Notes: generated by a model from the sequence alone, not told the origin. Shown: positions 4,035 through 27,839, counted from the stretch's first letter. The stretch is DNA of 64,000 nt from an uncultured bacterium (GCA_965541585.1 CBEUCH010000015.1:7120-71119); one strand, 5' to 3'. A program made the numbers and translations.

Positions 4035-6500
4035 ATGAGAAAAATGAAGATATCGTGCATTTTCATCCCGATTTTCATGGTTTCCACAACCGCTGCAGCG
4101 GCTATCCTCAACGTCCCGGGAGAATTTGCGACCATTCAAGAGGCGCTTGATACAAGAGCGATTTCCGACGGCGATACGGTGCTCGTACAACCGGGGATCT
4201 ATACCGAGAATATCAACTTCGGGGGACATAATGTTACAGTCGGCTCTCTGTTTCTTACCACCGGAGACAGATCATATATAACTTCGACTGTAATAGATGG
4301 CGATTCGTCGGGTTCGGTCTTGACCTTTGAAAATGATGAGGACAGCTCGGCCGCTATAATCGGGTTCACCATAACGAATGGCTACGCTGAAAACGGCGGC
4401 GGCATATTATGTATCAATTCCGGTCCTACCATCGAGGATAATATTATCATTGGAAATATCGCCGGCAGGGAGGGTGGAGGAATTTTCTGCAGCTATTCCA
4501 ATCCGGTGATCAGGTATAACAGGATCATGGCAAATGAGGCTGCGCTGGGTGGAGGTATCTGTTATAAGTATTACAATTCCGCAAACGGTGGCGGCAACGT
4601 GGATGATCAATTCATAACGAGGGAAAATTCGCTTCCGTCAATTGCAAACAACATCATCAGCGGAAATTCGGCGGAAGTCGGCGGCGGGATATATTGTCTG
4701 GGATCAAAACTGCTGATTTGCAACAGCACGATCACGGAAAACATAGCAGAAAGAGGAGGCGGTATATTCTGTCTCGATCCGGGCCTGGAGATAACAAGCA
4801 CAATTCTCTGGGGAAACTTAGCTGATGAAGGCCCTCAGATTGTCGGTGCTTCTATCGTAATAAATTATAGCAATATCGAAGGAGGCTGGAACGGTGACGG
4901 GAATATCGATCTCGATCCCTTATTCCGTGATGCCGGGAATGGCGATTTTCGGCTGATGAGCGCAGCTTGCGGCGACTCCGGTGACTCTCCATGTATCGAT
5001 GCCGGCAGCCCGGGTTTCATTGACAGGCTGGTAGATTGTTCATGGGGTCGGGGTACGGTTCTGTGTGATATCGGCGCCTATAGCGGCGGAGGAACGGCTC
5101 CTCCGCCGGAAACCGTTCACCGCGTTCCCTATGATCATCAGACTATCCAGCAGGGAATGAATGCCAGCTCCGATGGTGACACGGTTCTTGTATATCCCGG
5201 CACATATGTTGAAAACATCAATTTCGGCGGCCGTAAGATAACACTCGGTTCTTTATATCTGTTTACGCGAAATTATTCGCATATATCATCGACAGTCATC
5301 GATGGCAACTCCTCCGGGTCGGTAGTGACTTTTGAAAATGGCGAGGATAGCAGTAGCGTTATGGCGGGGTTCACAATAAGAAATGGACTGGCCGAAAACG
5401 GCGGTGGGATTTTTTGTTTCTATTCAGCCCCTCTGATCACCGAAAACATCATAAGCGAAAACAGAGCCAATTCGGAGGGCGGCGGAATTTTCTGTTTTTA
5501 TTCGAGTCCGTCAATAAAGAACAACGTCATTCGAGATAACAGCGCTACCTCCGGCGGCGGCATAAGCTGCCGTTACTCGAATCCTGTAATCAGCGATAAT
5601 CTGATAATCCAGAATGAAGTGTCATGGGAGGGCGGAGGTATATTTTGCCGAGACAACTCGACATCTCTTATCAAATATAATGAGATTCGCGAAAATCGGG
5701 CTGACAACGGCGGCGGGATTTTGTGCAGATATTCCAATCTCTTTATCAGCAATACCGTTATTTCCTCAAATATAGCCAATCAGGGGGGAGGCTTATTCTG
5801 CGTGGGTTCCACTCCATCAATAACCAACCTCGTAATTGCCGGGAATACCGCCGCATCCGGCGGTGGAATATTCTGCCTCAATTCCATGCCCATAATGACC
5901 AATACAATCCTGTGGTATAATGCCGCGGAAGAGGGATCGCAGATTTACGGCGATTCGCCTCTAATCAGATACAGCGACATACAGGGCGGTTGGGAAGGCC
6001 TGGGGAATATCGATCTTGACCCTCTGTTTCGAGATCCCGCAGGCGATGATTTCCACCTTATGGCTATCGCCTGTGGCGACTCCTCCGATTCTCCCTGTAT
6101 CGATACCGGCGATCCAAACGTCTCAGACAGTCTGCTGGACTGTTCCTGGGGCCTGGGAACAACGGACAGCGATATGGGCGCTTATGGAGGCGGAAATATT
6201 CTGACCGGAATCGATGAAATGAATCCCGACGTTTCTCGCCGCCTGGTTCTGGCCCGAAATTACCCCAATCCGTTCAATGTCTCAACATCTTTGGAATATA
6301 ATCTACCCGAGCCTTCTTATCTGACTATTGATATATATAATATCCTTGGCCGGCAGGTAGCTACCATATTCGAGGGCACCCAAGAAGCGGGCAAGCATAC
6401 CATCACCTGGGACGCTTCCGCTTTCCCCTCCGGCGTCTATTTCGCCCGGCTGAAAACAAAGAGACATTCCCGGACCATTAGACTGGTGCTTTTGAAATAA
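4035..6500 (+). CDS. Secreted right-handed parallel-beta-helix (PbH1) repeat protein with a T9SS C-terminal sorting domain. It contains an internal tandem duplication of a 320-aa module.
   Basis: It has a signal peptide and many N-x-x-x-GGGI(F/Y)C beta-helix rungs. The module ...DGDTVLVQPG.Y.ENINFGG... occurs twice (around residues 20-340 and 355-690). The C-terminus YPNPFN...IYNILGRQV...SGVYFARL...LVLLK is typical of a Por secretion CTD. Confidence 0.65.
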   Translation: MRKMKISCIFIPIFMVSTTAAAAILNVPGEFATIQEALDTRAISDGDTVLVQPGIYTENINFGGHNVTVGSLFLTTGDRSYITSTVIDGDSSGSVLTFENDEDSSAAIIGFTITNGYAENGGGILCINSGPTIEDNIIIGNIAGREGGGIFCSYSNPVIRYNRIMANEAALGGGICYKYYNSANGGGNVDDQFITRENSLPSIANNIISGNSAEVGGGIYCLGSKLLICNSTITENIAERGGGIFCLDPGLEITSTILWGNLADEGPQIVGASIVINYSNIEGGWNGDGNIDLDPLFRDAGNGDFRLMSAACGDSGDSPCIDAGSPGFIDRLVDCSWGRGTVLCDIGAYSGGGTAPPPETVHRVPYDHQTIQQGMNASSDGDTVLVYPGTYVENINFGGRKITLGSLYLFTRNYSHISSTVIDGNSSGSVVTFENGEDSSSVMAGFTIRNGLAENGGGIFCFYSAPLITENIISENRANSEGGGIFCFYSSPSIKNNVIRDNSATSGGGISCRYSNPVISDNLIIQNEVSWEGGGIFCRDNSTSLIKYNEIRENRADNGGGILCRYSNLFISNTVISSNIANQGGGLFCVGSTPSITNLVIAGNTAASGGGIFCLNSMPIMTNTILWYNAAEEGSQIYGDSPLIRYSDIQGGWEGLGNIDLDPLFRDPAGDDFHLMAIACGDSSDSPCIDTGDPNVSDSLLDCSWGLGTTDSDMGAYGGGNILTGIDEMNPDVSRRLVLARNYPNPFNVSTSLEYNLPEPSYLTIDIYNILGRQVATIFEGTQEAGKHTITWDASAFPSGVYFARLKTKRHSRTIRLVLLK

Positions 6501-6561
6501 ACTGCCTTATCCTGGGGCAAGTTAGTCTATTGCACCTTTGCCTGCTTGCGCGAATTTCGCC

Positions 6562-6623
6562 AAAAAAAAGCTTGACAAAATACAAGCCTTGATATATTTT
6601 TTTATTAAGGTAATTCAAGGAGG
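6562..6623 (+). promoter_or_regulatory. Sigma70-like promoter plus RBS for the S8 protease gene
   Basis: TTGACA at 6562, followed about 15-17 nt later by TATATT/TATTTT. AAGGAGG lies at 6617-6623, 5 nt before ATG 6629. Confidence 0.3.
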
Positions 6624-6628
6624 TTGTT

Positions 6629-8911
6629 ATGTGCAAAAGGGCAGGTATGAGCATATTGCCGGTATTGGCATTTGTGTCTTTTTGTCATCCCTCCCTATCC
6701 TACGGCTGCATAGACACGCTGTACACTGAACAGGGTGGGGAGTACATAAGGGTGTGGCCCCAGCAACCGGGCGTTGATTATGCTGTAGATCAACTAATCA
6801 TGAAAACGGGTGTAACCGCTATCAAACTCCCTGAAGGAGCAACCGAGGCTGATCTTAAATACTGTAAATTTAATAATGTCGAGTTGAAGAACGCCCTGAA
6901 GAATGCGAAGGCGTACTACATTAAAAAGGTCTTCCCTGATGCCAGCCCAAGTGATACAGTAGCTGTCCTTGACGACTCCACTACAATTCGATTAGCGATT
7001 CTTTCATCGATTTATAAGGTCCTTTTACTTCAAGATTCGGATGTCTATAATGCCATTGATTTGTTATGCCCGCTAGATGATGTAATCTGGGCGGAACCGA
7101 ATGTGATAATGGAGCCTCATAATACACCCAACGATGAATATTTCGATGTCCAGTGGAATCTAAAGGATACGGGCTATGGAATTAAGTGTGAATCGGCCTG
7201 GAATATTACCCAGGGAATTCCCGAAATTAAGATAGGTATGGTCGGTTCGGGGATCGATTTGAGCCACCCGGAATTCGCCGGAAAGATAGCGGGAGGAGGG
7301 AATTATAATGACCAATGCCCGGGCTGCGGTTATGACGACGATGGTTCGGGACACGAAACCAGGGTGGCGGGGATAGCCGCAGCATTAACAAATAACGGCA
7401 ATCCGGGCGGTTTTATAGCGGGCATAGCTGGCGGGTGGAACGGGGGCGGTAACGATATCGGCGCGGTCCTGTATTCGTTAAGGTCTACCGGTAACCCTGG
7501 CCACGATCACTTAGGCGATGACATAGCCCGCGCAATTTATAACGGAGTAAGAAGTCCATTGGACTGCGATATCATTAACATATCCTGGGGCCGTGAGGAA
7601 TACAGCGAGGTGCAACATGCTGCTATCGCATATGCGCAATCAAGAAGAAAAATAACTGTAATTTCTATGGGTAATGAGGGATTTGATGGTGGGCCTCCAG
7701 ATGGCCCTTGCGAGCCTCTTGAGTGCAGACGTGTTTATCCGGCTCAGTTCGATAACACATGGATCGTGGCTGTAGGTTCGTATGGCCAGGATGGTTTTAG
7801 GTGCGAAGATATATACAGGCAAAACTGTGGGAACCATCATTCCAGCTATGGCGGCCAGATTGATATCGTGGCCCCTGGCTATCTCATTCCGACCACTTCA
7901 CCCGGAGGTTACGATCCGATTTTTGGGAAAACCTCCGCGGCGGCCCCGCATGCCACAGGTGCAGCGGCGCTTGTTCTATCTCAAAAATCGCCTTTATGGT
8001 CTGAGGATATGGATTGGATTCTTAAATTTACTGCAGACGATCCCGGCGATGACGGTTACGACGAAGAGCATGGTTGGGGCCGTCTCGATGCCGCCGAGGC
8101 TGTGGCTAAGGTCTCATATCCTTCTTTCTATGACATATTTTACTATTCGGACGATTTCTTCTATTTCGATAGCACCAGCTCCTTCTATGTGGAAAGAGTG
8201 TGGTCGTTTTACAACGGCGATGACTATGACGACGATGATCCCGGGCCAATACCCGACGGCGAGTATACCGCCAGACGCTACGCAGTTTACTTTACGGTCA
8301 ATTATCCCTATCCCTTCTTCCCATATGTTGGCGCCTGGGGTAAAAGACATGCCTATGAAAACGGGGAGTTGGTTCAAACCAAAGGATGGTCGGGCGCCAG
8401 CCCTAACTTACAACGTGGGTATTGCGAGGTAGTTCCCGATACCGAAATCCCTTCCGGATGCGTGATAAAAACCTATACTTACCATATAGACAGAGGCGGT
8501 TACTGGGAATGGCAACCTTTTGATCCGGATTTCGTTCAGTGGGATCCGGTTAAGTTATGCTACGCGGTTTGGGGATTGCCCGCCGGGCACGGCCCCGGAG
8601 GACCCAAGGCAGGAGATACGGACACAGATGAGCCAATCGACTTTTCCCTTAGCTCTTACCCTAATCCGTTTAATAGCAGTGTGTTGATTAAGCTGGATCT
8701 CCCCATTCCTGATTTCGTCTCCGTTGATATTTACAACATCCTGGGGCGAAAAGTGAAAAATTTGATTTTCCAACGGCTCACGGCCGACTCATACGATATT
8801 AGATGGGATGGAACTGACAAGAACGGTGCCAACATTGGTTCCGGCATTTATTTGCTTAAAATCAAGGTTGGCGGTATAACCAGGACCGAAAGGATGGTCT
8901 TGATAAGATGA
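6629..8911 (+). CDS. Subtilisin-like serine peptidase (S8 family) with a T9SS C-terminal sorting domain
   Basis: Catalytic-triad contexts are present: Asp (MVGSGIDLSHPEF), His (GSGHETRVAGIAAA) and Ser (GKTSAAAPHATGAAALV). The C-terminal YPNPFNSS...IYNILGRKV...LIR is a CTD. Confidence 0.75.
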   Translation: MCKRAGMSILPVLAFVSFCHPSLSYGCIDTLYTEQGGEYIRVWPQQPGVDYAVDQLIMKTGVTAIKLPEGATEADLKYCKFNNVELKNALKNAKAYYIKKVFPDASPSDTVAVLDDSTTIRLAILSSIYKVLLLQDSDVYNAIDLLCPLDDVIWAEPNVIMEPHNTPNDEYFDVQWNLKDTGYGIKCESAWNITQGIPEIKIGMVGSGIDLSHPEFAGKIAGGGNYNDQCPGCGYDDDGSGHETRVAGIAAALTNNGNPGGFIAGIAGGWNGGGNDIGAVLYSLRSTGNPGHDHLGDDIARAIYNGVRSPLDCDIINISWGREEYSEVQHAAIAYAQSRRKITVISMGNEGFDGGPPDGPCEPLECRRVYPAQFDNTWIVAVGSYGQDGFRCEDIYRQNCGNHHSSYGGQIDIVAPGYLIPTTSPGGYDPIFGKTSAAAPHATGAAALVLSQKSPLWSEDMDWILKFTADDPGDDGYDEEHGWGRLDAAEAVAKVSYPSFYDIFYYSDDFFYFDSTSSFYVERVWSFYNGDDYDDDDPGPIPDGEYTARRYAVYFTVNYPYPFFPYVGAWGKRHAYENGELVQTKGWSGASPNLQRGYCEVVPDTEIPSGCVIKTYTYHIDRGGYWEWQPFDPDFVQWDPVKLCYAVWGLPAGHGPGGPKAGDTDTDEPIDFSLSSYPNPFNSSVLIKLDLPIPDFVSVDIYNILGRKVKNLIFQRLTADSYDIRWDGTDKNGANIGSGIYLLKIKVGGITRTERMVLIR

Positions 8912-10308
8912 GATTCCTGACTTTTGCCACGGCTCTTTTTACATTATTCTGTTTGTCCCCTCCGTCCTTCGCTGGCTGGACCAACCCGGTCTTTATAGAC
9001 TCCAGCGATAATCTTCTTACGCATGGTATAGAGGCAAGAAACGATTCCATTTTTGTCACTTATGGATCAGATCCCGGCAGATTCGTAAGAAGTCTCGATG
9101 GCGGGCTTACCTGGCAGGATGAATTCGTAAATGCGGAAGGCTTGGGTTGGGATATGTTCAAATTACAAGGAGATACCCTGGCCTTCTTTTTCGGTGCAGG
9201 CCAAAATATACAGTTTTATTTTTCTACTAACTTGGGAGCTACGTGGGAGGAACCCAGAAACTGTGGCGTCTATTCGTTTCTTGACAGCCCCTGGCCTGAC
9301 TTTAGCTCATCGCTTGTGACTATCTGCAGCGCCGAATACCTGTACGAAGTAACCACGATATTCTTGAAGCACTCCACCGATTTTGGAATTACCTGGGCCG
9401 AGCCGGAATCAATCTGGACCTATCCTCGCCCCGTTAACCCGTTTCTTGGTTATTTCTATGACCGCCCCTATATACTTTCCAGCGACTTTGACCTTATGAA
9501 TAATCATTCCCTTATAAAGCTTCTTTTCACCGTAGATGACGGAGAAAGCTGGATCAGTTACGATTCGATATCGGCACCCGGGGCGAACTGGGAACAAAGA
9601 ATGGATGCCTCACCGGGCGGTCAGATGGCCATAGTTTATATGGATTGGTTTTCACAGATGACAGACGAATCCAGCGTACTAGTCTGCCTGTCATCCGACT
9701 CGGGAATGACATGGACACCTCCAGTTGACCTGTCCGTAGCCGATGTAAACAGATATCCGCGAGTAGCCGTATCTGGCGATACAGTAATCGCGGCCTGGCA
9801 GGGAAACGTAGATACAACCGATCAATATAGCTCGGTTCTCCTGCGACGAACATACGATTTCGGGCAAACATGGCAGCCAGTGGAAGTCCTGTCAGAACCT
9901 GGATTAGGGGGGTTGCATCCGACCATAGAATTGGTTAACGGCAAAATACACCTGTTATGCTTCGGGCGATATGGGGGTGTTCCCGGCCTCTACTACCGCC
10001 GCTGGGAGCCGGAAACGGGTATTGAGGAAGAGATAGAAAAACCTGCGCATATATCGCTTCTAACAGCCTTTCCCAATCCCTTCAACGCCTCAACCACTAT
10101 CAGCTACGGTCTGCCTGAGGCTTCGGACGTTTGTATCGAGATCTACAATATCCTCGGCCAGCATGTGGAAACCGTTTTCGAAGGTGGAAAGCCAGCGGGT
10201 AATCACGTTATCACCTGGGATGCTTCCGCTTTCCCCTCCGGCGTCTATTTCGCCTGTCTGAATACTCTGAAAAGCTCGCAAAACATCAAGATGGTTTTGC
10301 TGAAATAG
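8908..10308 (+). CDS. Secreted BNR/Asp-box repeat (sialidase-like fold) protein with a T9SS CTD
   Basis: Its start overlaps the upstream stop (ATGA), and it has a signal peptide. It carries five S-x-D-x-G-x-T-W BNR motifs (SLDGGLTWQ, STDFGITWA, TVDDGESWI, SSDSGMTWT, TYDFGQTWQ). The CTD is FPNPFNAST...IYNILGQHV...SGVYFACL...MVLLK. Confidence 0.6.
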   Translation: MRFLTFATALFTLFCLSPPSFAGWTNPVFIDSSDNLLTHGIEARNDSIFVTYGSDPGRFVRSLDGGLTWQDEFVNAEGLGWDMFKLQGDTLAFFFGAGQNIQFYFSTNLGATWEEPRNCGVYSFLDSPWPDFSSSLVTICSAEYLYEVTTIFLKHSTDFGITWAEPESIWTYPRPVNPFLGYFYDRPYILSSDFDLMNNHSLIKLLFTVDDGESWISYDSISAPGANWEQRMDASPGGQMAIVYMDWFSQMTDESSVLVCLSSDSGMTWTPPVDLSVADVNRYPRVAVSGDTVIAAWQGNVDTTDQYSSVLLRRTYDFGQTWQPVEVLSEPGLGGLHPTIELVNGKIHLLCFGRYGGVPGLYYRRWEPETGIEEEIEKPAHISLLTAFPNPFNASTTISYGLPEASDVCIEIYNILGQHVETVFEGGKPAGNHVITWDASAFPSGVYFACLNTLKSSQNIKMVLLK

Positions 10309-10561
10309 ATAGGCTTATCTTTAGGCGCCTATTCGGGTGTTACATGATCTGCTCCTGAATTATCACATTTTTCTCTTGACATCATATCATATAGATGTTT
10401 ATTATATATGAGAATACATTCGCGAAGTGATTGACAGGTTTTAGGTATGATACTATCAGGGGCTTATGGGGAATTGGCATCTGAGGGTATTGAATATAAC
10501 ATATAGAGATCGATGCAGTTTCGCGGATATTGGCATTCACAGGATGAAAGGAGGTGGTTGA

Positions 10562-11263: not shown

Positions 11264-13555
11264 ATGCGTGAAGCTGGAACTGCGATAGTTGTTGTCAAGA
11301 TCTTGATAAGCATACAACTATGCCTAAGCCATGCCGTTGCCGACGAAGGACAGTGGTCAACGGCGGGGCCGGAAGGTGGAAGGATACGGACAATTGCTAT
11401 ACATGCCCAGGATAATCAGCGGCTTTATATAGGCACCATCGGCAAGGGCATATATCAAACAACCAACGGCGGCGAGGACTGGTTTCTGATGGAGGATGAT
11501 TCACTTGATCCGGTTATGCGCGATATCGTATTCCATCCGGCGGCCCCTGAGACGATGTATGCTGGTACATTAAATGGTATGTATAGAAGCTTTGATGAAG
11601 GGAACAACTGGGCCCTGATGAGGCCTCCGGGATACTGGTATAATAATATTAATGACCTCGAAATCCATCCCGTACATCATAATATAATATTTGCTGGGGG
11701 ATCATCCACAAACGTTAAATCAACCGATGGCGGTAATAGCTGGTATGATCTCGACCTACCCTGGGTGGCGGTAGTGGCCATAAGAACCGATCCTCTGCGC
11801 CCCGATACCATCTACCTGGCAACTCAATCGGCCCCGCAGGGCCTCTCGGTTTTCAGAAGCGAGGATCTCGGCGAGAACTGGTATCCGATTCACAACAACC
11901 TCGATAACTACCTCTGGGCCTGGTCCCTGGAGGTCGATCCCGTAAACAGCGATATTCTCTATCTGGGCGGAAGCAGTCATCCTGACGGAACGGGCATCTG
12001 TCTTGAAAAAACGACTGACGCCGGCGATTACTGGTTCGATATAACGCCGCCCGACCTGGCCAGCCCCTGGATATTCGATATAGCCATATCGCCTTCGGAT
12101 CATATGACAATCTACGCCTGCTCGGAAGCGGACGGCATTTTAAAAAGCACGGACGGCGGGGAGTCGTGGCGGGAGATCAACGAAGGCCTTAACGCCGCAA
12201 CGGTTATGGATGCCGAAATAGATCCCGTAACCGGTTTTATCTATATAGGAACGCTCTACTACGGTATTTATCGGTCTACCGACGGCGGCGGGAGCTGGCA
12301 GAAAATCAGCCATAACATTTATAGTTCGGAGTGCAGAGATTTCTCAGTTAATCCTCGAAACCCGGACTCGGTTTATGTTGCCACGATGAACGGCGTATAT
12401 CGCTCCATGGATGGGGCCCGGAGCTGGCAGGAGGTAGATCTGGAGTTCCCGGCTGACGACGAGCGGACCTACGGTGTGGCCATCGATCCTTACGATCCCG
12501 ATTTCATATACGTCAGCTTCTTCAACTATAGAGAACCGATAGAAGGCGGGATTTTCCGTTCCACCGACGGCGGCGACAGCTGGGAGATATTCTCCAACGG
12601 ATTGCCTGATGGCCGCTACTACGGCGACATAGAGGTGGCCGATTATGGAAATGGCACCCGACGGCTCTTTATGGCGGCCGTCGGGCTCTATTATTCCGAT
12701 GACCTGGGTGAAAGCTGGCATCTCTGCCAGGGCGGTTTGCCTGAGGATTTTTATTATGGAACGCTGGCAGTAAGCCCTGTAGATCCCGACTTAGTTTTCG
12801 TAAGCGATTGGGATGACCCCCGCCGGATATACAGATCCGAAGACGGAGGCCAGACGTGGCTCGAGTTTGAGGGGCCCCCCGGAACCGGCCTTTTGAACAA
12901 GATTACCTGCGATCCTGTCGACCCCGATCTGGTCTACTCATGCAGGTATTTCGAGGGGCTATTCATATCGACAGACAGGGGTCAGAGCTGGCAAGACATA
13001 AACAACAATCTGCCCCGGGACGCCGATTACTTCATCCCCTCGGGTCTTGCTATTAATCCTCTGAACCCTCAGAATCTTTATGTAAATGTAAGGTTCCGAG
13101 GTGTGTTTATCTCCTCTGACGGGGGCCAGAACTGGCAGGCTTTTAGCGATGGATTGAACATGGGATATTCCTGGGCGGTCACCTTAATAGCACCGTCGGA
13201 TACGAACAGGATCTGCCTGGCCACCGATTCCCGGTCGGTCTGGTCCATCACCCGAATTCCCACCTCAACCGAAAACGACGATGTTTCACCGAGGGAATAT
13301 TCGATTCTGTCAAACTATCCCAATCCCTTCAATTCTATCACCGTTATAAAGTACTCTCTATTGGAATCCGAGCCGGTTATTCTCTCTATATACAATCTCC
13401 TCGGCCAGAAAGTGACCACACTATTTGACGGTATACAACAGGCCGGCGAACACCACATCACCTGGGATGCTTCCGCTTTCCCCTCCGGCGTCTACTTCGC
13501 CCGGCTGAATACTCTGAAAAACTCGCAAAACATCAAGATGGTTCTGCTAAAATAG
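11264..13555 (+). CDS. Secreted BNR/Asp-box (Ycf48/sortilin-like) beta-propeller repeat protein with a T9SS CTD. This is paralog 1 of a tandem pair.
   Basis: It carries more than a dozen (S/T)xDGGxSW Asp-box repeats (TNGGEDWF, STDGGNSWY, SEDLGENWY, STDGGESWR...). The C-terminal YPNPFNSITVIKY...IYNLLGQKV...SGVYFARL...MVLLK is a CTD. Confidence 0.6.
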   Translation: MREAGTAIVVVKILISIQLCLSHAVADEGQWSTAGPEGGRIRTIAIHAQDNQRLYIGTIGKGIYQTTNGGEDWFLMEDDSLDPVMRDIVFHPAAPETMYAGTLNGMYRSFDEGNNWALMRPPGYWYNNINDLEIHPVHHNIIFAGGSSTNVKSTDGGNSWYDLDLPWVAVVAIRTDPLRPDTIYLATQSAPQGLSVFRSEDLGENWYPIHNNLDNYLWAWSLEVDPVNSDILYLGGSSHPDGTGICLEKTTDAGDYWFDITPPDLASPWIFDIAISPSDHMTIYACSEADGILKSTDGGESWREINEGLNAATVMDAEIDPVTGFIYIGTLYYGIYRSTDGGGSWQKISHNIYSSECRDFSVNPRNPDSVYVATMNGVYRSMDGARSWQEVDLEFPADDERTYGVAIDPYDPDFIYVSFFNYREPIEGGIFRSTDGGDSWEIFSNGLPDGRYYGDIEVADYGNGTRRLFMAAVGLYYSDDLGESWHLCQGGLPEDFYYGTLAVSPVDPDLVFVSDWDDPRRIYRSEDGGQTWLEFEGPPGTGLLNKITCDPVDPDLVYSCRYFEGLFISTDRGQSWQDINNNLPRDADYFIPSGLAINPLNPQNLYVNVRFRGVFISSDGGQNWQAFSDGLNMGYSWAVTLIAPSDTNRICLATDSRSVWSITRIPTSTENDDVSPREYSILSNYPNPFNSITVIKYSLLESEPVILSIYNLLGQKVTTLFDGIQQAGEHHITWDASAFPSGVYFARLNTLKNSQNIKMVLLK

Positions 13556-13742: not shown

Positions 13743-16040
13743 TTGCAAATGAGTGAAGCACGATGTTCGCTGGTTGTTGCGACGATTCTTATATGCATAC
13801 AACTATGTTCTGGTCAAGCCATTGCCGATGAGGGTCGCTGGTCCAGCGGCGGGCCGCACGAGGCCAGGGTTCGGACCATAGCCATCCATCCGGACGATAA
13901 CCAACGGATATATATAGGGACTATTGAGAACGGCATCTACCAGACAACGGATGGCGGAGCCAATTGGTTCTTGATGGAGGATGATTCACTTGATATTACT
14001 ATACGCGATATAGTCTTCCATCCGGCGGCTCCGGAGACGATGTATGCGGGAACCCAAAGAGGTATGTATAGAAGCTTTGACGAAGGAAACAGCTGGAGCC
14101 TGATGAGGCCGCCGGGATACTGGTATAATAATATTAAGGACCTCGAGATCCATCCCGTAGATCATGATATAATATTTGCTGGCGGGTCATCCACAAACGT
14201 CAAATCGACCGATGGCGGTAATAGTTGGTACGATCTCGACCTACCCTGGGTGGCGGTAGTGGCCATAAGAACCGATCCTCTGCGCCCCGATACCATCTAC
14301 CTGGCAACTCAATCGGCCCCTCAGGGCCTGTCTGTTTTCAGAAGCGAGGATCTCGGCGAGAGCTGGTATCAAATTCATAATGACCTCGATTCTACCATGT
14401 GGGCCTGGGATCTGGCGATCGATCCAGTCAACAGTAATACCCTCTACCTGGGGGGCAGTAGTCACCCGCAAGGCACAGGCGTATGCCTGGAAAAGACGAC
14501 CGATGCCGGCGAGCACTGGTTCGATATCACCCCGCCGGGACTTGTCAGCCCGTGGATTATCACTATTACGATATCACCGTTTGACCACAGCACCGTATAT
14601 ATCTGCACTGAAGCCACTGGCGTTTTGAAAAGCACGGATGGCGGAGAAACCTGGCGCGAGATCAATGAAGGGCTTGATGCTCGAACTGCGGCGAAAGTGG
14701 AAATCGATTCGGTTACGGCGTATCTCTACCTTGGAACTTACTACCATGGTATCTATCGATCAACGAACGGCGGCGAGAGCTGGCAGAAAATTAGCAATAA
14801 TATCAATCAGGCCAATTGCGAGGATCTATCTATAAACCGGCACGATTCGGACTCGCTTTATGTGGCCAGCATAGGCGGCGTTTACCGTTCTGTTGACGGC
14901 GCTTCAAGCTGGCAGAATGTAGAGCTAGACTTTCCCTTCTACGAGACCAGGGCAAATGGCGTCCAGATTGACCCGTATGACCCGAATTATGTCTACGTAA
15001 GTTTCTACGATTACAGAGGCTTAGGCGAAGGCGGGATATTCCGTTCAACCGATGGCGGGGAGACCTGGGATATGTTTACCAACGGCCTGCCTGAAGGTGG
15101 CTATTACGGCAAATTCGCGGTGGCCGATTACGGAGACGGCTCCCGACGGCTCTTTCTTGGAGCTGTCGGGCTGTATTATTCCGATGATCTTGGCGAGAAC
15201 TGGGCTCTGTGCCAGGGCGGCCTGCCGTCTGATTTGTATTATGGAAGAATTGAGGTAAGCAACGTTGATCCCGATCTAATCTTTGTCTCTGACTGGGGTG
15301 ACCCCAGATTAGTTTACCGCTCCACTGATGGTGGTCAAACGTGGGCTGCTCTATCGAGCCCACCGGGGAACGGAGCTATAAACAGTATCGCCTGCGATCC
15401 TTTCAACTCTGATATCGTTTATGCCTGTAGATCCCATGAAGGAGTGTTCAGGTCCACTGACACCGGGCAGAGTTGGGTTGATATCAGCAATAATCTACCG
15501 AGAGATCCCGATTATTTTATCCCGTCTGGAGTTGCCATTAACCCTCTTAATCCCCAGATTCTTTATGTAAACTCGGCCCGTTACGGCATATTCGTCTCAC
15601 ATGACGGCGGGCGAAGCTGGGAGGATTTCAATGAAGGATTGCGAACCGGATATTCTCATGCCGTTACCGCCATTGCGCCCTCGGACACCAACAGGATTTT
15701 CCTTGCCACGAGCTCGCAGTCAGTCTGGACTATAACTAAGATCCCCACCTCGGTTGATAATGACGATGTTTCACCGAGGGAATATTCGATCCTGTCAAAC
15801 TATCCCAATCCCTTCAATTCTATCACCGTTATACAGTATTCTCTATTGGAATCCGAGCCGGTTATTCTCTCTATATATAATATCCTCGGCCAGCAAGTAG
15901 CTACCATATTCGAGGGATTGCAGCAGGCTGGGGAACATACGCCCACTTGGGACGCTTCCGCTTTCCCCTCCGGCGTCTACTTCGCCCGGATGAAAACCCT
16001 GAAAAGCTCGCAAAGCCTTAAGATGATTCTGCTCAAATAG
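13743..16040 (+). CDS. Secreted BNR/Asp-box beta-propeller repeat protein with a T9SS CTD. This is paralog 2.
   Basis: It is collinear with 11264..13555 over the whole length, with roughly 70-75% identity by eye. The same Asp-box repeats and CTD are present. Confidence 0.6.
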   Translation: MQMSEARCSLVVATILICIQLCSGQAIADEGRWSSGGPHEARVRTIAIHPDDNQRIYIGTIENGIYQTTDGGANWFLMEDDSLDITIRDIVFHPAAPETMYAGTQRGMYRSFDEGNSWSLMRPPGYWYNNIKDLEIHPVDHDIIFAGGSSTNVKSTDGGNSWYDLDLPWVAVVAIRTDPLRPDTIYLATQSAPQGLSVFRSEDLGESWYQIHNDLDSTMWAWDLAIDPVNSNTLYLGGSSHPQGTGVCLEKTTDAGEHWFDITPPGLVSPWIITITISPFDHSTVYICTEATGVLKSTDGGETWREINEGLDARTAAKVEIDSVTAYLYLGTYYHGIYRSTNGGESWQKISNNINQANCEDLSINRHDSDSLYVASIGGVYRSVDGASSWQNVELDFPFYETRANGVQIDPYDPNYVYVSFYDYRGLGEGGIFRSTDGGETWDMFTNGLPEGGYYGKFAVADYGDGSRRLFLGAVGLYYSDDLGENWALCQGGLPSDLYYGRIEVSNVDPDLIFVSDWGDPRLVYRSTDGGQTWAALSSPPGNGAINSIACDPFNSDIVYACRSHEGVFRSTDTGQSWVDISNNLPRDPDYFIPSGVAINPLNPQILYVNSARYGIFVSHDGGRSWEDFNEGLRTGYSHAVTAIAPSDTNRIFLATSSQSVWTITKIPTSVDNDDVSPREYSILSNYPNPFNSITVIQYSLLESEPVILSIYNILGQQVATIFEGLQQAGEHTPTWDASAFPSGVYFARMKTLKSSQSLKMILLK

Positions 16041-23023: not shown

Positions 23024-24712
23024 TTGATGCGGGAGTTTTTATGTTTTTTGATGATCGGTTTTTTTGCGCTCTTTCAGCTGCCATCTTACGTGGCAGCGGG
23101 CGAGATCGATTACCCGAAACCGTTTCGGCTGTCTATTCTGGAGTATCCGAACTCGGATACGCCTGACGATCCCTGGGCCATCATCCTCGATGTGGATAAT
23201 ATCCAGATAAACAGCGACAACAGCGGCCGGGTGCAGAATGAGGAGATGGTCTGCATAAATCCTACCAATACGGCCAACGCTGTGGCCGTCTGGCGCGATT
23301 TCCGTCTCGACTACCGGCGCGTGGGTGTCGGCTATACCTTTGATGGCGGCCAGACATGGCACGATACCCTGCTCTTTGTTCCGCCGCATCCCCGTCAATC
23401 CGATCCCGTTCTGACGGTCGATGATGACGGCACCTTCTACGCCTGTACATTGACGCTTGAATGGTCAATGAACGAGCCGTCCGGAATCTATATTCAAAAA
23501 TCGACCGATGGCGGCGTGAGCTGGTCCGAACCTTATATTGCAATCGATTCCGTTCAAGGTGCTTTCGAGGACAAGCAGTGGATGACTCTCGATAGAACCA
23601 GCGGTTCCACCAATGGCAATATATATATCAGCTGGACACGATTCACCGATATCACCGAAATTCTCTTGGTCTCATCTACCGACGGAGGAGAAACCTATTC
23701 CGATCCGGTGTATGTTTCCGATGAAAACGGCGTTCAATGGTCGGTTCCCACGGTCGGTGTCTGGGGAGACGTATTTGTTGCCTGGTTCGACTATTATCCA
23801 ACCTCCGCGATTTTGATGGATGTTTCCACTGATCAGGGAGCAACTTTCGGGACAGACCGGGTAATCGTTGAAACCAACACCTGGGACGTTAATATCAACG
23901 GCGGCATCTGGGTTTTCCCCTATCCAGCCCTGAACTCCGACGTGAGCTTGCTCTCACCATATCTTGGCAACCTCTACCTGGCCTTTATGGACGAGAACGT
24001 TACAGATATGGATATCTTCTTTATGAAATCCGAGGATAACGGGGCCAGCTGGTCAGAGCCGATCAGGCTCAACGATGATCCGGAACATAACGGCGCAGAC
24101 CAGTTCCATCCCTGGATAACGGTGGACGAGACTGGATCAATCCATGCCATCTTCTACGACAGGCGGATGGATGAGCGAAACAGAAGTTTCGATCTCTATT
24201 ACACCAGGTCCGACGATGCCGGGGAAACCTGGCTGCCGAACGAGCGGATCACCACCGTCTCTTCCGACCCGAACGATGCTCGTCTGGCGGGCCTGATTGG
24301 GGAATATATCGGCCTCGACGCCTGGCAGGGCCAGGTTCAAATGGTATGGACCGATACCAGAAACGGCAACCAGGATGTTTTTTCAGGCAGAATGTCTCGC
24401 ACCGGTATCGAAGACGATATCGTGACCATTCCTGACAGACTGAGGCTCCATATGCCCCATCCAAACCCGTTTAATGCCTCTGTTTCTGTTACCTTTGAGT
24501 CTGATCAGGAGGCGCCGGTTAGTCTCGAGATCGTGGATATACTCGGCCGGAAGACGGCTGAGTTATTCGATGGCGTCTGCCGGACCGGCACAAACAGATT
24601 CGTCTGGGATGGCACCGATATGACCGGCGGCGAGGTCGCCAGCGGAACATATTTCGTCCGTATGAGCGGACCCGACGGTGTGCAGGTTGAGAAGGCCGTG
24701 CTGTTAAGATAA
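23024..24712 (+). CDS. Secreted BNR-repeat sialidase-like protein with a T9SS CTD
   Basis: It has a signal peptide and six BNR motifs (TFDGGQTWH, STDGGVSWS, STDGGETYS, STDQGATFG, SEDNGASWS, SDDAGETWL). The CTD is HPNPFNASVSV...IVDILGRKT...GTYFVRM...AVLLR. Confidence 0.6.
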   Translation: MMREFLCFLMIGFFALFQLPSYVAAGEIDYPKPFRLSILEYPNSDTPDDPWAIILDVDNIQINSDNSGRVQNEEMVCINPTNTANAVAVWRDFRLDYRRVGVGYTFDGGQTWHDTLLFVPPHPRQSDPVLTVDDDGTFYACTLTLEWSMNEPSGIYIQKSTDGGVSWSEPYIAIDSVQGAFEDKQWMTLDRTSGSTNGNIYISWTRFTDITEILLVSSTDGGETYSDPVYVSDENGVQWSVPTVGVWGDVFVAWFDYYPTSAILMDVSTDQGATFGTDRVIVETNTWDVNINGGIWVFPYPALNSDVSLLSPYLGNLYLAFMDENVTDMDIFFMKSEDNGASWSEPIRLNDDPEHNGADQFHPWITVDETGSIHAIFYDRRMDERNRSFDLYYTRSDDAGETWLPNERITTVSSDPNDARLAGLIGEYIGLDAWQGQVQMVWTDTRNGNQDVFSGRMSRTGIEDDIVTIPDRLRLHMPHPNPFNASVSVTFESDQEAPVSLEIVDILGRKTAELFDGVCRTGTNRFVWDGTDMTGGEVASGTYFVRMSGPDGVQVEKAVLLR

Positions 24713-24777: not shown

Positions 24778-24850
24778 GCGGGAGTAGCTCAGCTGGTAGA
24801 GCACCACCTTGCCAAGGTGGCTGTCGCGAGTTCAATCCTCGTCTCCCGCT
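24778..24850 (+). tRNA. tRNA-Gly (anticodon GCC)
   Basis: The cloverleaf was folded by hand. The acceptor is GCGGGAG/CTCCCGC, the D-arm GCTC-AGCTGGTAGA-GAGC, the anticodon stem CCACC/GGTGG with loop TTGCCAA, and the T-arm GCGAG-TTCAATC-CTCGT. Confidence 0.8.
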
Positions 24851-24926: not shown

Positions 24927-24973
24927 ATTGCCCATAGATTGGAAAACTTGTCTTAGCAGCTGAGGGACGGAGG
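24927..24973 (+). promoter_or_regulatory. Conserved 47-nt upstream motif (copy A) preceding the PbH gene 25043
   Basis: attgcccatagattggaaaacttgtcttagcagctgagggacggagg recurs at 26357..26403 with 4 mismatches. It lies just upstream of a -35-like element. Confidence 0.35.
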
Positions 24974-25042
24974 CCAGAAATCTCTTGCCGAACCCGGAGA
25001 ATTTCCTATTATTATCATAGGCTGCATCGATCGGGAGGACTT

Positions 25043-26176
25043 TTGAAAAGTGTATACATTATAGCTATTGCGTTGGCTTGCTATGCCTATCTGCCTGTTT
25101 CAGCTACGATCATCAACATCCCCGGTGACCACCCGACCATACAAGATGGCATAAATGCCTCCACCGATGGTGACACCGTGCTGGTACAGCCAGGAACATA
25201 TGTGGAGAACATCAATTTCCAGGGGCATAATATCGTGCTGGGGTCGCTGTTTTTGACTACGGGGGATACTGATTATATCTCATCGACAATAATCAATAGT
25301 AATGGTTATGGGTATGGGAGTGTTGTATCTTTTTTTAATGGTGAAGATAATAGCGCTGTTATTACCGGATTCACGATTCAAAATGGTTATACTTCGTGGG
25401 GCGGCGGGATTCATTGCTTGGGTAATTCCAACCCTATGATAAGCTACAATACCATAAGCGGAAATTCAGCCATCGATTTCGGCGGCGGGATTCTTTGCGA
25501 CAATTCCAGTCCGACGATCGACCACAATACCATCAGCGGAAATTCAGCTGGCATTGACGGCGGCGGGATTTATTGCCATGATTCCGATCCCACGATCAGC
25601 AATAACACCATCAGCGGAAATTCAGCCGACTTCTTCGGCGGCGGGATTCATTGCTGGGATTCCAATCCGGTAATAACCAACACCATCTTCTGGGCTGATA
25701 GCGCCCCAGGTGGATCGGAGATTTCTTTAGAATGGTCATTTCCGGTGATTACCTACTGCGACGTTCAAGGCGGCTGGGCAGGCGACGGGAACATCGATTG
25801 CGATCCTGAATTTTGTTTTCCGGATACGGGGAATTATTATTTGACAGAAGGTTCCTGCTGCCTTGGCGGAGGCGAAGGTGGGGCTGACATTGGCGCATTC
25901 GGTCAGGGTTGTTGCCCTTACATTGCAGGAGATGTTAATTACAACACTATGCCGTTCGAACTTGTTGACGTTATGGCTATGATCCGATGCTATCACGGGG
26001 CGCCGCCGTATTACACCTGCGATTGTCCCCCTCATGGCTCCGATTTTCCGGCGACGGCCGACCCCAACGGCAACTGCGTGGCCAACGAACTTAACGATGT
26101 GGTCACTGAGATTGCAGCCTACAGAGGTTCAACCACGGTATCCGGATGTATAGATTGTCCGGTTTCGGGAAGATAA
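25043..26176 (+). CDS. Secreted parallel-beta-helix repeat protein with a dockerin-like C-terminal tandem (no T9SS CTD). It has a TTG start.
   Basis: GGGAGG lies 6 nt before TTG 25043, and there is a signal peptide. The N-terminal module is about 70% identical to the modules of 4035..6500 and 26523..27839. NTISGNSA...GGGI.C rungs are present. The C-terminal GDVNYNTMPFELVDVMAMI and DPNGNCVANELNDVVTEIAAY resemble the two calcium-binding segments of a type I dockerin. Confidence 0.5.
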   Translation: MKSVYIIAIALACYAYLPVSATIINIPGDHPTIQDGINASTDGDTVLVQPGTYVENINFQGHNIVLGSLFLTTGDTDYISSTIINSNGYGYGSVVSFFNGEDNSAVITGFTIQNGYTSWGGGIHCLGNSNPMISYNTISGNSAIDFGGGILCDNSSPTIDHNTISGNSAGIDGGGIYCHDSDPTISNNTISGNSADFFGGGIHCWDSNPVITNTIFWADSAPGGSEISLEWSFPVITYCDVQGGWAGDGNIDCDPEFCFPDTGNYYLTEGSCCLGGGEGGADIGAFGQGCCPYIAGDVNYNTMPFELVDVMAMIRCYHGAPPYYTCDCPPHGSDFPATADPNGNCVANELNDVVTEIAAYRGSTTVSGCIDCPVSGR

Positions 26177-26295
26177 TTTTCAGGTAATGGAAGCCAAGCG
26201 GCGGATTGAGATTCCTGCAGTGGTCGTTTACGAGCAGTAAAAAAGGGCTGCCGAAACAACCCCTTTTAACTTATACATCAAAACGCCTATATCCT

Positions 26296-26338
26296 ATCCC
26301 CCGGACTCAGCCGCCTGTGGCGGGATTTGTGCACGTGG
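26296..26338 (+). repeat. GC-hairpin repeat element, copy R1 (ccgcc-tgt-ggcgg followed by tttgtgcacgtgg)
   Basis: Related copies occur at 28304..28339 and 28442..28474, and the sequences are alignable. It may act as a terminator for the 25043 gene. Confidence 0.35.
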
Positions 26339-26356
26339 TTGCACACCAACTACCTT

Positions 26357-26403
26357 ATTGCCCATAGATTGGAAGACTTGTCTTAGCGGCTGAGGGATGG
26401 GGG
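26357..26403 (+). promoter_or_regulatory. Conserved 47-nt upstream motif (copy B) preceding the PbH gene 26523
   Basis: It has the same motif as 24927..24973. It is followed by TTGACA at 26431 and an AT-rich -10. Confidence 0.35.
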
Positions 26404-26522
26404 TATACTCTCGCAAACGCCGAAAATCCTTGACATTTAAGTAGAATTGTGTATTCATATTAATGGACAGACGTAATTTTCATCTGTGATCGGCACTAGG
26501 ATAAATACCTCGATGGGAGGAT

Positions 26523-27839
26523 ATGATGAAACTGGTTACGGTTTTTACGACGGTTATCGTAGTCATTGCCTTTGCTGCTGCGACGGCAACGATTATAAAC
26601 GTTCCTGATGATTATCCCACCGTTCAGGAAGGCATAAATGCTTCCACCGACGGCGACACAGTCCTTGTGCAGCCGGGGACGTACGTGGAGAACGTCGTCT
26701 TCAACGGCCATAATATTGTTCTTGCGTCGTTGTTCTTGACCACAGGGGACGCATCCTACATATCCTCCACGATACTGGACGGTAACTCATCGGGGGCTGT
26801 AATTACGCTTACAGACGGGGAAGATAATTCAGCAATGATTATCGGCTTTACCATTACGAATGGAATCTCAGTTTTTGGCGGCGGTATTAATGCCTGGTTT
26901 ACTTCTCCTACAATACTTCATAATATAATCAGAGGTAACAAAGGAACATGGTATGGGGGGGCGATCAGTCTTGAACAATCACCGGGTACGGCCATAGTAC
27001 AATATAATGTTTTGACGAAAAATCAGGCTGAACTCGGAGGAGGACTGAGAGCCTCGTATGGCGATCCTTTTATCGGAAACAACCTCATTATTAATAATTA
27101 TGCGGAGGAATGGGGCGGCGGTATGTATGTAAACAACAACACGCCCCTAATTATCAATAATATTATTTCAGGCAATGAGGCGGATGAAATGGGAGGGGGA
27201 TTAAGAACGGGAAATGCGTCACCCAATGTTGTAAATTGTATTTTTTATGGTAATTCTGCCCCCGACGGACCCGAGATTTCGCCCTGGGGTTCCCCGGTAT
27301 TTTCATATTCGGATATACAGGGAGGATATGAGGGGGAGGGGAATATCGATGCCGATCCGCTCTTCCGTGATCCTGAAAACGGCGATTTTCATCTAATGTC
27401 AATCGAATGCGGCGATCCCTCCGACTCTCCCTGCATCGACGCCGGCGATCCGTCTATCTTCGATTATCTGCTCGAATGTGATTGGGGCTTAGGAGGCCAG
27501 CGGAGCGATATGGGCGTCTACGGCGGCCAGGCCATCCCCACCGATATCAGGGAGGAGCATCCCCCGACAATTCCCGTGGCATACGGCCTCCCTCAGAATT
27601 ACCCCAATCCGTTTAATGCTTCAACCGTCATTCGATATAACCTACCCACAGCTTCCGATATAACCATCTCCATCTACGACATCCGCGGCCGCAAAGTTGA
27701 AACGCTGGTTCAGGGAGAACAGCAGGCCGGGTATCATCAGATTATCTGGGATGCCAGCGATCATTCCTCCGGCATGTATTTTTATAAGATTCAGGCGGGG
27801 AAATATGCTGAGACGAGGAAGATGGTGCTGTTGAAGTAA
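26523..27839 (+). CDS. Secreted parallel-beta-helix repeat protein with a T9SS CTD
   Basis: It has a signal peptide, an N-terminal module shared with 4035 and 25043, and beta-helix rungs. The CTD is YPNPFNASTVIRY...IYDIRGRKV...SGMYFYKI...MVLLK. Confidence 0.65.
   Translation: MMKLVTVFTTVIVVIAFAAATATIINVPDDYPTVQEGINASTDGDTVLVQPGTYVENVVFNGHNIVLASLFLTTGDASYISSTILDGNSSGAVITLTDGEDNSAMIIGFTITNGISVFGGGINAWFTSPTILHNIIRGNKGTWYGGAISLEQSPGTAIVQYNVLTKNQAELGGGLRASYGDPFIGNNLIINNYAEEWGGGMYVNNNTPLIINNIISGNEADEMGGGLRTGNASPNVVNCIFYGNSAPDGPEISPWGSPVFSYSDIQGGYEGEGNIDADPLFRDPENGDFHLMSIECGDPSDSPCIDAGDPSIFDYLLECDWGLGGQRSDMGVYGGQAIPTDIREEHPPTIPVAYGLPQNYPNPFNASTVIRYNLPTASDITISIYDIRGRKVETLVQGEQQAGYHQIIWDASDHSSGMYFYKIQAGKYAETRKMVLLK

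Follow-up and report, generated by a model that had tools for sequence, protein, structure and literature searches.

A divergent dockerin-fold tail on one of three beta-helix paralogs in an uncultured Zixibacteria-type bacterium that also uses T9SS sorting domains

Three genes, here called A, B and C, were analysed within a 64,000-nucleotide stretch of DNA (the window) from an uncultured bacterium. They encode secreted right-handed parallel beta-helix proteins, are paralogs of long standing and differ in their C-termini. Genes A and C end in a T9SS C-terminal domain (CTD), and gene B ends in a Cys-rich tail that, based on profile-profile linkage and predicted fold, belongs to the dockerin superfamily as a previously unmodelled subfamily. 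The exchange of C-terminal tags was found to be routine in this lineage, so that the paralogs in the window represent ordinary anchor swapping and no exception. Regarding the origin of the window, the named matches to its PurD, at 64-78% identity, were from Zixibacteria in nine out of ten cases, identifying the source as an uncultured Zixibacteria-type bacterium, a diderm of the FCB group.

Gene A (4035..6500, + strand) encodes 821 aa comprising a signal peptide, two tandem beta-helix modules and a T9SS type A CTD, and gene C (26523..27839, + strand) encodes 438 aa with a signal peptide, one beta-helix module and a T9SS type A CTD, as determined from the translations, Pfam and NCBIfam scans and alignment. 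Gene B (25043..26176, + strand; 377 aa, TTG start) consists of a signal peptide, one short beta-helix module and the Cys-rich dockerin-fold tail. In a four-way alignment (A4), all on the + strand, the modules of gene A corresponded to aa 22-358 (4098..5108) and aa 359-728 (5109..6218, with the largest number of rungs), that of gene B to aa 21-290 (25103..25912) and that of gene C to aa 22-344 (26586-27554). The first-pass annotation had described a module of 320 aa occurring twice in gene A and once each in genes B and C, and this was borne out by the translations and the alignment. Relative to the first module of gene A, identities were 58% (the second module of the same gene), 52% and 50%. 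With no more than 58% identity between them, the modules of gene A were judged too diverged for a recent duplication. The passengers of genes B and C matched each other far beyond chance (BLASTP, E=5e-74).

Both the repeats and the fold of the right-handed parallel beta-helix (PbH1 / Pfam Beta_helix) were recognised, and the gene B module was additionally matched by the para_beta_helix repeat model TIGR03804 (24.9 bits, cutoff 19.45; NCBIfam scan). The gene B module is the shortest of the four, with a shortened C-terminal cap that retains 'DPEF...GNYYL...SCCLGGG' and lacks 'CGD..DSPCID...DCSWG'. Hence, of the motif originally proposed for the shared module, the module itself is common to all three genes and the 'CGD..DSPCID' portion is missing from gene B. 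Across the 113 closest homologs of the module, the short cap is the consensus form. The sequence 'IALAC' near the N-terminus of gene B was considered as a lipoprotein signal and ruled out, as the mature N-terminus aligns with the 'ATIINVP' of the paralogs, which have no Cys. Similarity of the beta-helix body to known structures was at the level of the fold only (9-20% identity). Rhombotarget A and the chlamydial Pmp-type beta-helix surface proteins are targeted by GlyGly-CTERM/rhombosortase and an autotransporter barrel; the likeness to these proteins (PDB 9CDU for Rhombotarget A) was limited to the helix rungs.

A 47-nt element was found upstream of gene B (24927..24973) and again upstream of gene C (26357..26403), both copies on the + strand and 91% identical (repeat search, family D3). 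These were the only two matches in the window, with none expected, and an Rfam search of the element matched no family. The element is probably a shared promoter or leader region that was brought along by duplication.

The CTD of gene A (aa 743-818; 6261..6488, + strand) matched Pfam Por_Secre_tail (PF18962) with E=1.7e-10 and TIGR04183 with E=2.2e-12, and that of gene C (aa 360-435; 27600-27827, + strand) matched the same models with E=2.7e-12 and E=2e-13. Scores were 41.5 and 47.2 bits for PF18962 (cutoff 27) and 46.8 and 50.1 bits for TIGR04183 (cutoff 23), for genes A and C respectively. The prior assignment of a Por-secretion CTD to two of the paralogs is thereby confirmed above the curated cutoffs of both libraries, while the Pfam and NCBIfam scans showed no T9SS CTD on gene B. 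No component of the T9SS machinery (PorV/SprA/PorU etc.) was encoded within the 64-kb window. Judging from the seven intact CTD genes that the window contains, however, the machinery is very likely present in this genome. A truncated CTD remnant was also seen at 3733-3840. Concerning other sorting tags, no window ORF carried an IPTL-CTERM (PF18203; IPTLSEWG motif, TM helix and basic cluster) and none of the genes in the window passed a choice-of-anchor model. Gene A scored 14 bits (E=0.046) against choice-of-anchor Q (NF041518, choice_anch_Q), below the cutoff of 25.

The tail of gene B (aa 291-377; 25913..26173, + strand) contains two tandem loop-helix repeats, GDVNYNTMPFELVDVMAMIRCYHG and ADPNGNCVANELNDVVTEIAAYRG, and six cysteines that are invariant in the family. 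Repeat 1 (tail residues 7-29; 25931..25999, + strand) comprises the 13-residue loop DVNYNTMPFELVD followed by a helix (residues 17-27 in the AF2 model), and repeat 2 (tail residues 50-72; 26060..26128, + strand) comprises the 13-residue loop DPNGNCVANELND and a helix at residues 60-70. A search of 1.84 billion proteins returned tail homologs in 375 representative clusters at E<=1e-3, 60 of them at E<=1e-30, and the gene B tail was 58-68% identical to many other proteins. The 13-residue loops of this subfamily, two per tail, follow the pattern D-x-N-x-N-G/C-x-x-x-E-L-x-D. Among 141 distinct tails the loop and Cys positions were at least 90% conserved: in repeat 1, D1 100%, N/D3 98%, N/D5 97%, E10 90% and D13 100%; in repeat 2, D1 97%, N/D3 96%, N/D5 98%, Cys6 100%, E10 97% and D13 100%. 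With homologs of this number and conservation, the tail is a genuine domain. The conserved acidic and amide positions suggest that it may bind Ca2+, and the six cysteines probably form three disulfides. The tail occurs in a single copy per protein (host proteins of up to 2166 aa), nearly always at the C-terminus or within ~30 residues of the end. Behind 88 of 153 subfamily tails (58%) a conserved extension of 20-36 aa was present, with a P.LKSK-like motif in 77 of the 88. The extension (~28 residues, basic) has no hydrophobic segment and is missing from gene B and from 27% of tails.

Whether such a tail qualifies as a dockerin depended on the sensitivity of the comparison. The first-pass annotation had called the C-terminus of gene B dockerin-like and proposed a Pfam scan for Dockerin_1 and Por_Secre_tail. 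Por_Secre_tail was duly found on genes A and C, but Dockerin_1 matched neither the whole gene B protein (E<=1) nor the isolated tail or either of its halves, even at E<=10. Similarly, NCBIfam gave nothing for the tail even at E<=10, the subfamily profile matched no sequence in the PDB, and Dockerin_1 did not appear among the 25 families listed across 55 subfamily proteins, a list that extends to families matched by a single member. The link was instead made through a group of Cys-framed relatives (alignment A3), to which the subfamily profile aligned with an hhalign probability of 99.7% and E=3.9e-26. Of these relatives, 26/28 match Pfam Dockerin_1, and they match PDB dockerins with E=4e-6. 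Homology of the tail to bona fide dockerins is therefore detectable, transitively via the Cys-framed relatives. The AF2 model and the conservation table both revealed the two tandem repeats of a Ca2+-binding-type loop plus helix that are expected of a dockerin, and the predicted tail structure (pLDDT 94.5) has the three-dimensional fold of a dockerin, with weak Foldseek E-values (>1). The earlier description was thus right in substance. The direct Pfam, NCBIfam and PDB searches alone would have led to its false refutation, which the remote-homology steps avoided.

Neither loop of the tail has the canonical 12-residue form, D-x-[ND]-x-[DN]-G-x-x-[ND]-x-x-D, since each carries one insertion before the last Asp. 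Based on the hhalign gap and the conservation, the Glu of the loops takes over the role of the position-9 Asn. As a consequence of the insertion, Ca2+ coordination may differ in the 13-residue loops or may have been lost. Type I dockerins of clostridial cellulosomes (PF00404; Xyn10B 2CCL_B, Cel9 4FL4_A) have 12-residue loops, compared to the 13 residues and conserved E-L before the final Asp seen here. The gene B subfamily also differs from them in its six invariant Cys, one of which occupies loop position 6 of repeat 2, in a longer Pro/Cys-rich linker (C-x-C-P-P-H-G) and in a C-terminal G-C-x-D-C-P clasp. Unlike type I dockerins, it is unmatched by the Pfam model, occurs in an FCB-group diderm and is attached mostly to peptidases and adhesin-like repeats rather than to cellulases, with no cohesin in the sequence scanned. 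The Cys-framed dockerins, from uncultured bacteria, resemble the subfamily in length, in their C-terminal position and in having two repeats, and their cysteines follow the same framework (C...C-x-C...C...C-x-x-C-P). These however have canonical 12-residue D-x-N-x-N-G-x-x-N-G-x-D loops and a 'YFKGG' helix end and are mostly detected by Pfam, whereas the gene B subfamily, which goes undetected, is marked by the inserted 'PLEL' loop and a helix that ends in 'YRG'.

Related genomes were then considered for the combination of tags with passengers. The 113 homologs of the beta-helix module carried a T9SS CTD (Por_Secre_tail) in 39 cases, an IPTL-CTERM in 33 and Dockerin_1 in seven. In two related MAGs, at least 29 and at least 30 tail genes per genome were present alongside T9SS-CTD genes. 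The tail passengers were the usual secreted cargo, namely C25, C1, S8 and M14 peptidases, FG-GAP, Sortilin/BNR and beta-helix proteins, and a T9SS-CTD paralog (E<1e-10) existed for 37 of the 55 passengers that bore the tail in the loci sampled. One pair of orthologs with 75% identity differed solely in the tag. IPTL-CTERM was present in 13 ORFs of related loci and on seven of the ten untagged proteins scanned there. A degenerate IPTL-CTERM, out of frame, was observed directly behind a tail gene in one related locus (L019). A second locus (L001) encoded a beta-helix protein with the tail that was 51% identical to gene B over the full length. Finally, one chain (L026:317-2545) combined a weak internal dockerin match with a T9SS CTD, showing that a dockerin-like module does not in every case stand in for the T9SS in this lineage.

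The coexistence of two targeting systems in one paralog family, initially regarded as unusual, is not so, because the T9SS CTD, IPTL-CTERM, canonical dockerin and the present tail are swapped freely on many passenger families, and because Cloacimonadota provide an earlier described example of a dockerin/cohesin system beside T9SS CTDs (PMC8542988). In that organism, Ca. Stygibacter, a cellulosome-like system was proposed in which C-terminal dockerins, recognised by InterProScan, are found on S8 and C25 peptidases and further secreted enzymes, T9SS CTDs are in use in the same genome, and a scaffoldin of 3,755 aa combines tandem cohesins with a T9SS CTD (Williams et al. 2021, PMC8542988). The likeness extends to the FCB-group diderm host, the peptidase cargo with C-terminal dockerins and the accompanying T9SS CTDs. 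The two cases differ in that Ca. Stygibacter has a cohesin scaffoldin, none of which was present in the sequence scanned here, and in that the dockerin variant of the window escapes the standard models. A literature search for Zixibacteria with a dockerin or cohesin found nothing. In the NCBIfam concept of 'choice-of-anchor' families and PEP-CTERM/IPTL-CTERM-type tags, one passenger family carries alternative C-terminal anchors. The beta-helix homologs resemble these families in carrying alternative anchors, but the dockerin-fold tail is a folded domain, whereas the sorting motifs of those systems are short and transmembrane.

Taken together, the data are best explained by one beta-helix body bearing alternative tags, with the tail of gene B probably acting as a dockerin-superfamily docking module. 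Each of the three proteins consists of an N-terminal signal peptide, a beta-helix body with a pectate-lyase-like fold, which may be an enzyme or an adhesin, and a modular C-terminal tag. Cargo with a T9SS CTD is exported through the outer membrane, loses the CTD and is then either set free or fixed to the surface, and the products of genes A and C would be expected to follow this route. The tail of gene B, which has two F-hand-like repeats, would dock non-covalently and probably Ca2+-dependently to a partner located at the cell surface or within an assembly outside the cell, as an alternative to T9SS-dependent attachment. The putative partner may be a cohesin or another protein. The cohesin partner first suggested for the tail has so far gained no support, as neither the scanned ORFs of the window nor 19 large secreted proteins from related loci (~0.4 Mb of related genomes) contained a cohesin.

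The lack of a cohesin in that sequence would also suit a tail that is a true sorting signal, the domain or its basic extension being read by a dedicated machinery that targets, cleaves or attaches the cargo without cohesin-type docking. The nearly invariable C-terminal position, the single copy per protein, the ~30 genes per genome and the one-for-one replacement by either of two known sorting signals in orthologous passengers point in this direction, as do the out-of-frame IPTL-CTERM remnant behind the L019 tail gene and the frequent extension with its P.LKSK-like motif. Against it, the predicted fold is that of a dockerin, and we know of no secretion system that recognises this fold; T9SS CTDs are beta-sandwiches. 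Furthermore, the extension cannot be essential, given its absence from gene B and over a quarter of tails, and it lacks a hydrophobic segment. No candidate machinery gene was conserved beside the tail genes in the loci examined. A sorting signal is considered rather unlikely. Equally tentative is the proposal that the tail, with its frequent P.LKSK extension, defines a third, cohesin-independent display or sorting pathway in Zixibacteria-type bacteria, by which ~30 proteins per genome, including many peptidases, would assemble on, or be delivered to, a receptor or machinery in parallel to T9SS and IPTL-CTERM.

Alternatively, the tail could be a structural cap without a partner, Ca2+-binding and disulfide-stabilised, that stabilises or solubilises the extracellular protein. 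The six invariant Cys and the conserved acidic loop positions suit such a role, as does the lack of a cohesin in the sequence scanned. Passages of PMC8542988 and PMC6487960 that refer to Peer et al. 2009 report dockerin-like modules from organisms without cohesins, and 'orphan' modules in such genomes may act likewise. Were stability its only function, one would not expect the module to be nearly always terminal and single-copy, or to change places systematically with tags for sorting and anchoring, at one junction and on many unrelated passengers, which makes this explanation quite unlikely. The notion that gene B is a decaying paralog which lost its T9SS CTD and now ends in meaningless read-through could draw on its short module, truncated cap and TTG start, and on the CTD remnant elsewhere in the window. 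It is refuted by conservation: the tail keeps all invariant residues and is closely matched in many proteins, its fold is predicted with high pLDDT, the L001 relative aligns over its full length and the short cap is the consensus form. Decay is thus highly improbable, and a docking module remains the preferred reading.

As regards the window, the analysis mainly serves to clarify. Zixibacteria and related bacteria, which have large secreted proteomes, are uncultured degraders that abound in sediments. At least three C-terminal tags occur on the same passengers in this lineage, among them a dockerin derivative overlooked by current domain libraries, and automated annotation would consequently leave ~30 proteins per genome apparently untagged. 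With a model of the tail subfamily, the secretomes of these phyla would be predicted better. Builders of cohesin-dockerin scaffolds could also find the disulfide-clasped dockerin of interest. If a partner exists, it would point to a cellulosome-like assembly, rich in proteases, on the surface of a Gram-negative cell.

The open reading frames at 4035–6500, 25043–26176 and 26523–27839 (genes A, B and C, all on the plus strand) proved to be real, and their translations had a conserved module in common. Two copies of this module had been proposed in gene A and one each in genes B and C, and a four-way alignment agreed, placing them at aa 22–358 and 359–728 of gene A, aa 21–290 of gene B and aa 22–344 of gene C. 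Identity to the first gene A module was 58, 52 and 50%, with 88 invariant columns; since the two modules of gene A share only 58% identity, its internal duplication is old. The passengers (the protein bodies ahead of the C-terminal tag) of genes B and C matched each other at E=5e-74 (BLASTP). Variation among the copies was mainly in the count of ‘GGGI.C’ rungs, which were fewest in gene B. A ‘CGD..DSPCID...DCSWG’ stretch had been listed for all copies, but it is missing from gene B, whose C-terminal cap is shortened. As gene B passed the NCBIfam parallel beta-helix repeat model (24.9 bits against a cutoff of 19.45), and Pfam Beta_helix and Chlam_PMP repeats were matched in 64 and 54 of the 113 closest module homologs, respectively, the sequence evidence assigns the passenger to the beta-helix fold with certainty. 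Named homologs of the module were mostly from Zixibacteria, and so were nine of ten named matches to the PurD of the window (64–78% identity).

The T9SS type A sorting domains that close genes A and C scored well over the curated cutoffs, which bears out the Por-secretion CTD suggested for both. Five further genes between A and C end in the same CTD type, namely a subtilase (6629–8911), two BNR proteins (8908–10308 and 23024–24712) and two Sortilin/BNR proteins (11264–13555 and 13743–16040). Everything else encoded in the 4–28 kb interval is housekeeping and unrelated (purD, purE, a cation efflux protein, galT-like and glgA). The A–C span therefore does not form a single operon but is a region of the chromosome where genes for secreted proteins are abundant. 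A truncated CTD of T9SS type A, reduced to its N-terminal half (‘RNHPNPFNSATALNYFIPEFGPVDLSIYDILGRHID*’), was also detected at 3733–3840 on the plus strand, where it matched a CTD HMM derived from the window at E=2.6e-11. Since this fragment is intergenic, before gene A, and without an upstream passenger, it is probably the remnant of a decayed cargo gene. Genes B and C are each preceded, 70–165 nt before the start, by a copy of a 47-nt element (24927–24973 and 26357–26403, plus strand, 91% identical), which is absent upstream of gene A. The element had no counterpart in Rfam and may be a promoter, operator or leader shared by genes B and C. A tRNA-Gly(gcc) lies at 24778–24850, between the BNR gene and gene B, and a tRNA-Cys(gca) further downstream at 30647–30718.

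A tRNA-Leu(taa) (33281–33368) adjoins a tyrosine integrase (33477–34550, minus strand); beyond them, a stretch of lower GC (0.38–0.45) extends to the window end at 64000. Encoded in this stretch are a CARF/sigma-54 activator (37860–39758), a D5-type primase (41242–43767), type I R-M hsdM/S/R (44933–52054), an AAA_13 ATPase (52155–54647), a GIY-YIG/RAMA protein and a RecD-like helicase (58050–61964). The region has the appearance of a mobile or defence island that has integrated.

No T9SS CTD was found on gene B. Its C-terminal 87 residues (aa 291–377, the tail) gave no Pfam or NCBIfam match, dockerin or other, at E<=10, even when the isolated segment and its halves were searched, and a PDB sequence search with the tail family profile was also without a match. 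The tail is nevertheless a conserved domain. A word-indexed search returned 18 proteins sharing 58–68% identity with it, and their alignment defined a unit of 87–88 residues in which 32 positions, six of them Cys, are invariant. An exhaustive HMMER search of 1.84 billion cluster representatives with the tail profile matched 375 proteins at E<=1e-3, 60 of them at E<=1e-30. In nearly all, the domain was at the extreme C-terminus or ~25–30 residues ahead of it, in hosts of ~100 to 2166 aa. A pseudogene reading of the gene B tail was excluded by the conservation data.

The weaker of these matches (E 1e-10 to 1e-6) combined the same cysteine frame with textbook repeats, ‘GDVNGNGxxNGxDVxYxVxYFKGG’. 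These Cys-framed relatives, from uncultured bacteria and with canonical 12-residue loops, matched Pfam Dockerin_1 in 26 of 28 cases (best E=1.2e-11), and their profile reached solved dockerins at E=4e-6. Aligned with hhalign, the window subfamily (the close relatives of the tail) and the Cys-framed relatives were linked over 85 columns with a probability of 99.7% and E=3.9e-26. An AlphaFold model of the window tail, built from a 62-sequence alignment, had a mean pLDDT of 94.5 and helices at residues 17–27 and 60–70. The best four Foldseek matches to this model were dockerins, at E-values >1, which are common for so small a domain. The predicted structure is independent evidence agreeing with dockerin kinship. 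Based on the profile links and the predicted fold, the tail was accepted as dockerin-like in homology and fold, but outside the Pfam family as currently modelled. The first-pass annotation had called the end of gene B dockerin-like; remote homology and the predicted fold upheld this, whereas the curated Dockerin_1 scan it had proposed as a test did not.

The subfamily was compared with canonical dockerins using 141 distinct tails. Both loops follow D-x-[ND]-x-[ND]-[G/C]-x-x-x-E-L-x-D and span 13 residues, in contrast to 12 in canonical dockerins, the one-residue insertion appearing as a gap in the hhalign alignment. The first and last Asp were conserved at 97–100%, the E-L pair at 90–97% and the six Cys at 95–100%. 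At position 6 of the repeat 2 loop the subfamily has Cys, whereas canonical dockerins have Gly; a ‘C-x-C-P-P-H-G’ linker contributes two further Cys, and a terminal ‘G-C-x-D-C-P’ motif another two. This placement suggests three disulfides clasping the ends and the linker. The window tail kept all invariant positions; its minor substitutions are T in place of G at position 6 of loop 1 and H in place of R in ‘YRG’. We recognize a new, divergent, cysteine-clasped dockerin subfamily with 13-residue loops that is outside the Pfam and NCBIfam models. A basic extension of 20–36 residues followed 88 of 153 subfamily tails (58%), with a P.LKSK-like motif in 77 of the 88, while 41 (27%), including that of the window, ended at the domain. 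The extension has a conserved pattern, ‘RLLPGG..PLVMPxLKSKVK....SE’ (for example, aa 165–191 of the subfamily protein P0002, L040:10001–10576), and could be a processing or recognition site.

Coexistence of the two kinds of tag in one paralog family had been considered unusual, but module homologs and MAG loci showed the swapping of tags to be widespread. Among the 113 closest homologs of the gene B module, Pfam identified Por_Secre_tail in 39, IPTL-CTERM in 33 and Dockerin_1 in seven; with local HMMs, 45 of 120 module homologs had a T9SS CTD and 13 a Cys-framed dockerin. When 185,579 species-representative genomes were searched with subfamily-specific peptide patterns, only two MAGs matched, at 39 loci. 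Six-frame HMM searches of these loci found 29 or more tail-bearing ORFs in one MAG and 30 or more in the other, with a run of five at one locus (L018); the loci also contained 27 ORFs ending in a T9SS CTD of the window type and 13 with IPTL-CTERM. The tail-bearing passengers included C25, C1, S8 and M14 peptidases, FG-GAP, Sortilin/BNR, LVIVD, Big_5 and beta-helix proteins, and in the sampled DNA 37 of 55 had a T9SS-CTD paralog at E<1e-10.

The window BNR protein at 23024–24712, which carries a T9SS CTD, was 75% identical over 467 residues to a MAG protein (L039:10595–12238). Past ‘...NGNQDVFS.R.S.TG’, at the passenger/tag junction, identity was lost abruptly and the MAG protein continued into IPTL-CTERM; judging from this alignment, a tag swap can be sharp and recent. 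At another locus (L019), a tail gene ending at 10303 is followed at once, in a different frame, by a degenerate IPTL-CTERM (‘DIPTLSEWGIIILAPLLPAAGTAAVIRGRK’, 10282–10449) that resembles a fossil of tag replacement. A 743-aa protein (L026:317–2545), whose passenger is 61–67% identical to tail-bearing paralogs, has both module kinds in one chain, a weak internal Dockerin_1 match (aa 462–526, E=0.006) and a terminal T9SS CTD. Within L040/L041:7451–10576, a recurrent protein of ~190 aa has a signal peptide, a ‘QNYSIDWYVIASGGGHSES..DGTIGQ..NY..GFW’ motif, a dockerin-fold tail and the basic extension; the gene immediately upstream of it encodes 848 aa and includes a Peptidase_S74 domain (a tailspike-type intramolecular chaperone).

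Beyond the observed identity and distribution of the domain, the best-supported reading of the gene B tail is that it would act as a docking module. The gene B product would first be exported by Sec, as its signal peptide and aligned mature N-terminus (‘ATIINIP’) suggest, and would then cross the outer membrane to reach the cell surface; its paralogs A and C would use T9SS. At the surface, the tail would bind a partner non-covalently, probably in a Ca2+-dependent manner. There is precedent in Ca. Stygibacter (Cloacimonadota), where secreted GH18, GH57, S8 and C25 enzymes have C-terminal dockerins and a 3,755-aa scaffoldin combines tandem cohesins with a T9SS-type CTD (PMC8542988); dockerins have been reported in rumen Bacteroidetes too (PMC6487960). 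The search for the putative cohesin partner that had been suggested covered the window and ~0.4 Mb of two other genomes only. No Cohesin match was obtained among the larger window ORFs scanned or, at the MAG loci, in nine large T9SS-CTD proteins and ten large secreted proteins taken as untagged, of which seven proved to be IPTL-CTERM carriers. The one-for-one exchange of the tail with two known sorting signals would also suit a tail that is itself, or through its frequent basic extension, the true sorting signal for another machinery, an explanation we regard as unlikely; that the tail is an orphan stabilising module seems quite improbable.

In some Zixibacteria-type MAGs the new subfamily has expanded to ~30 genes per genome, and its tail is interchangeable in use with the T9SS CTD and IPTL-CTERM. 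Because tag swapping was found across the homologs and MAG loci, the A/B/C family is one local sample of a lineage-wide system of passenger–tag combination.
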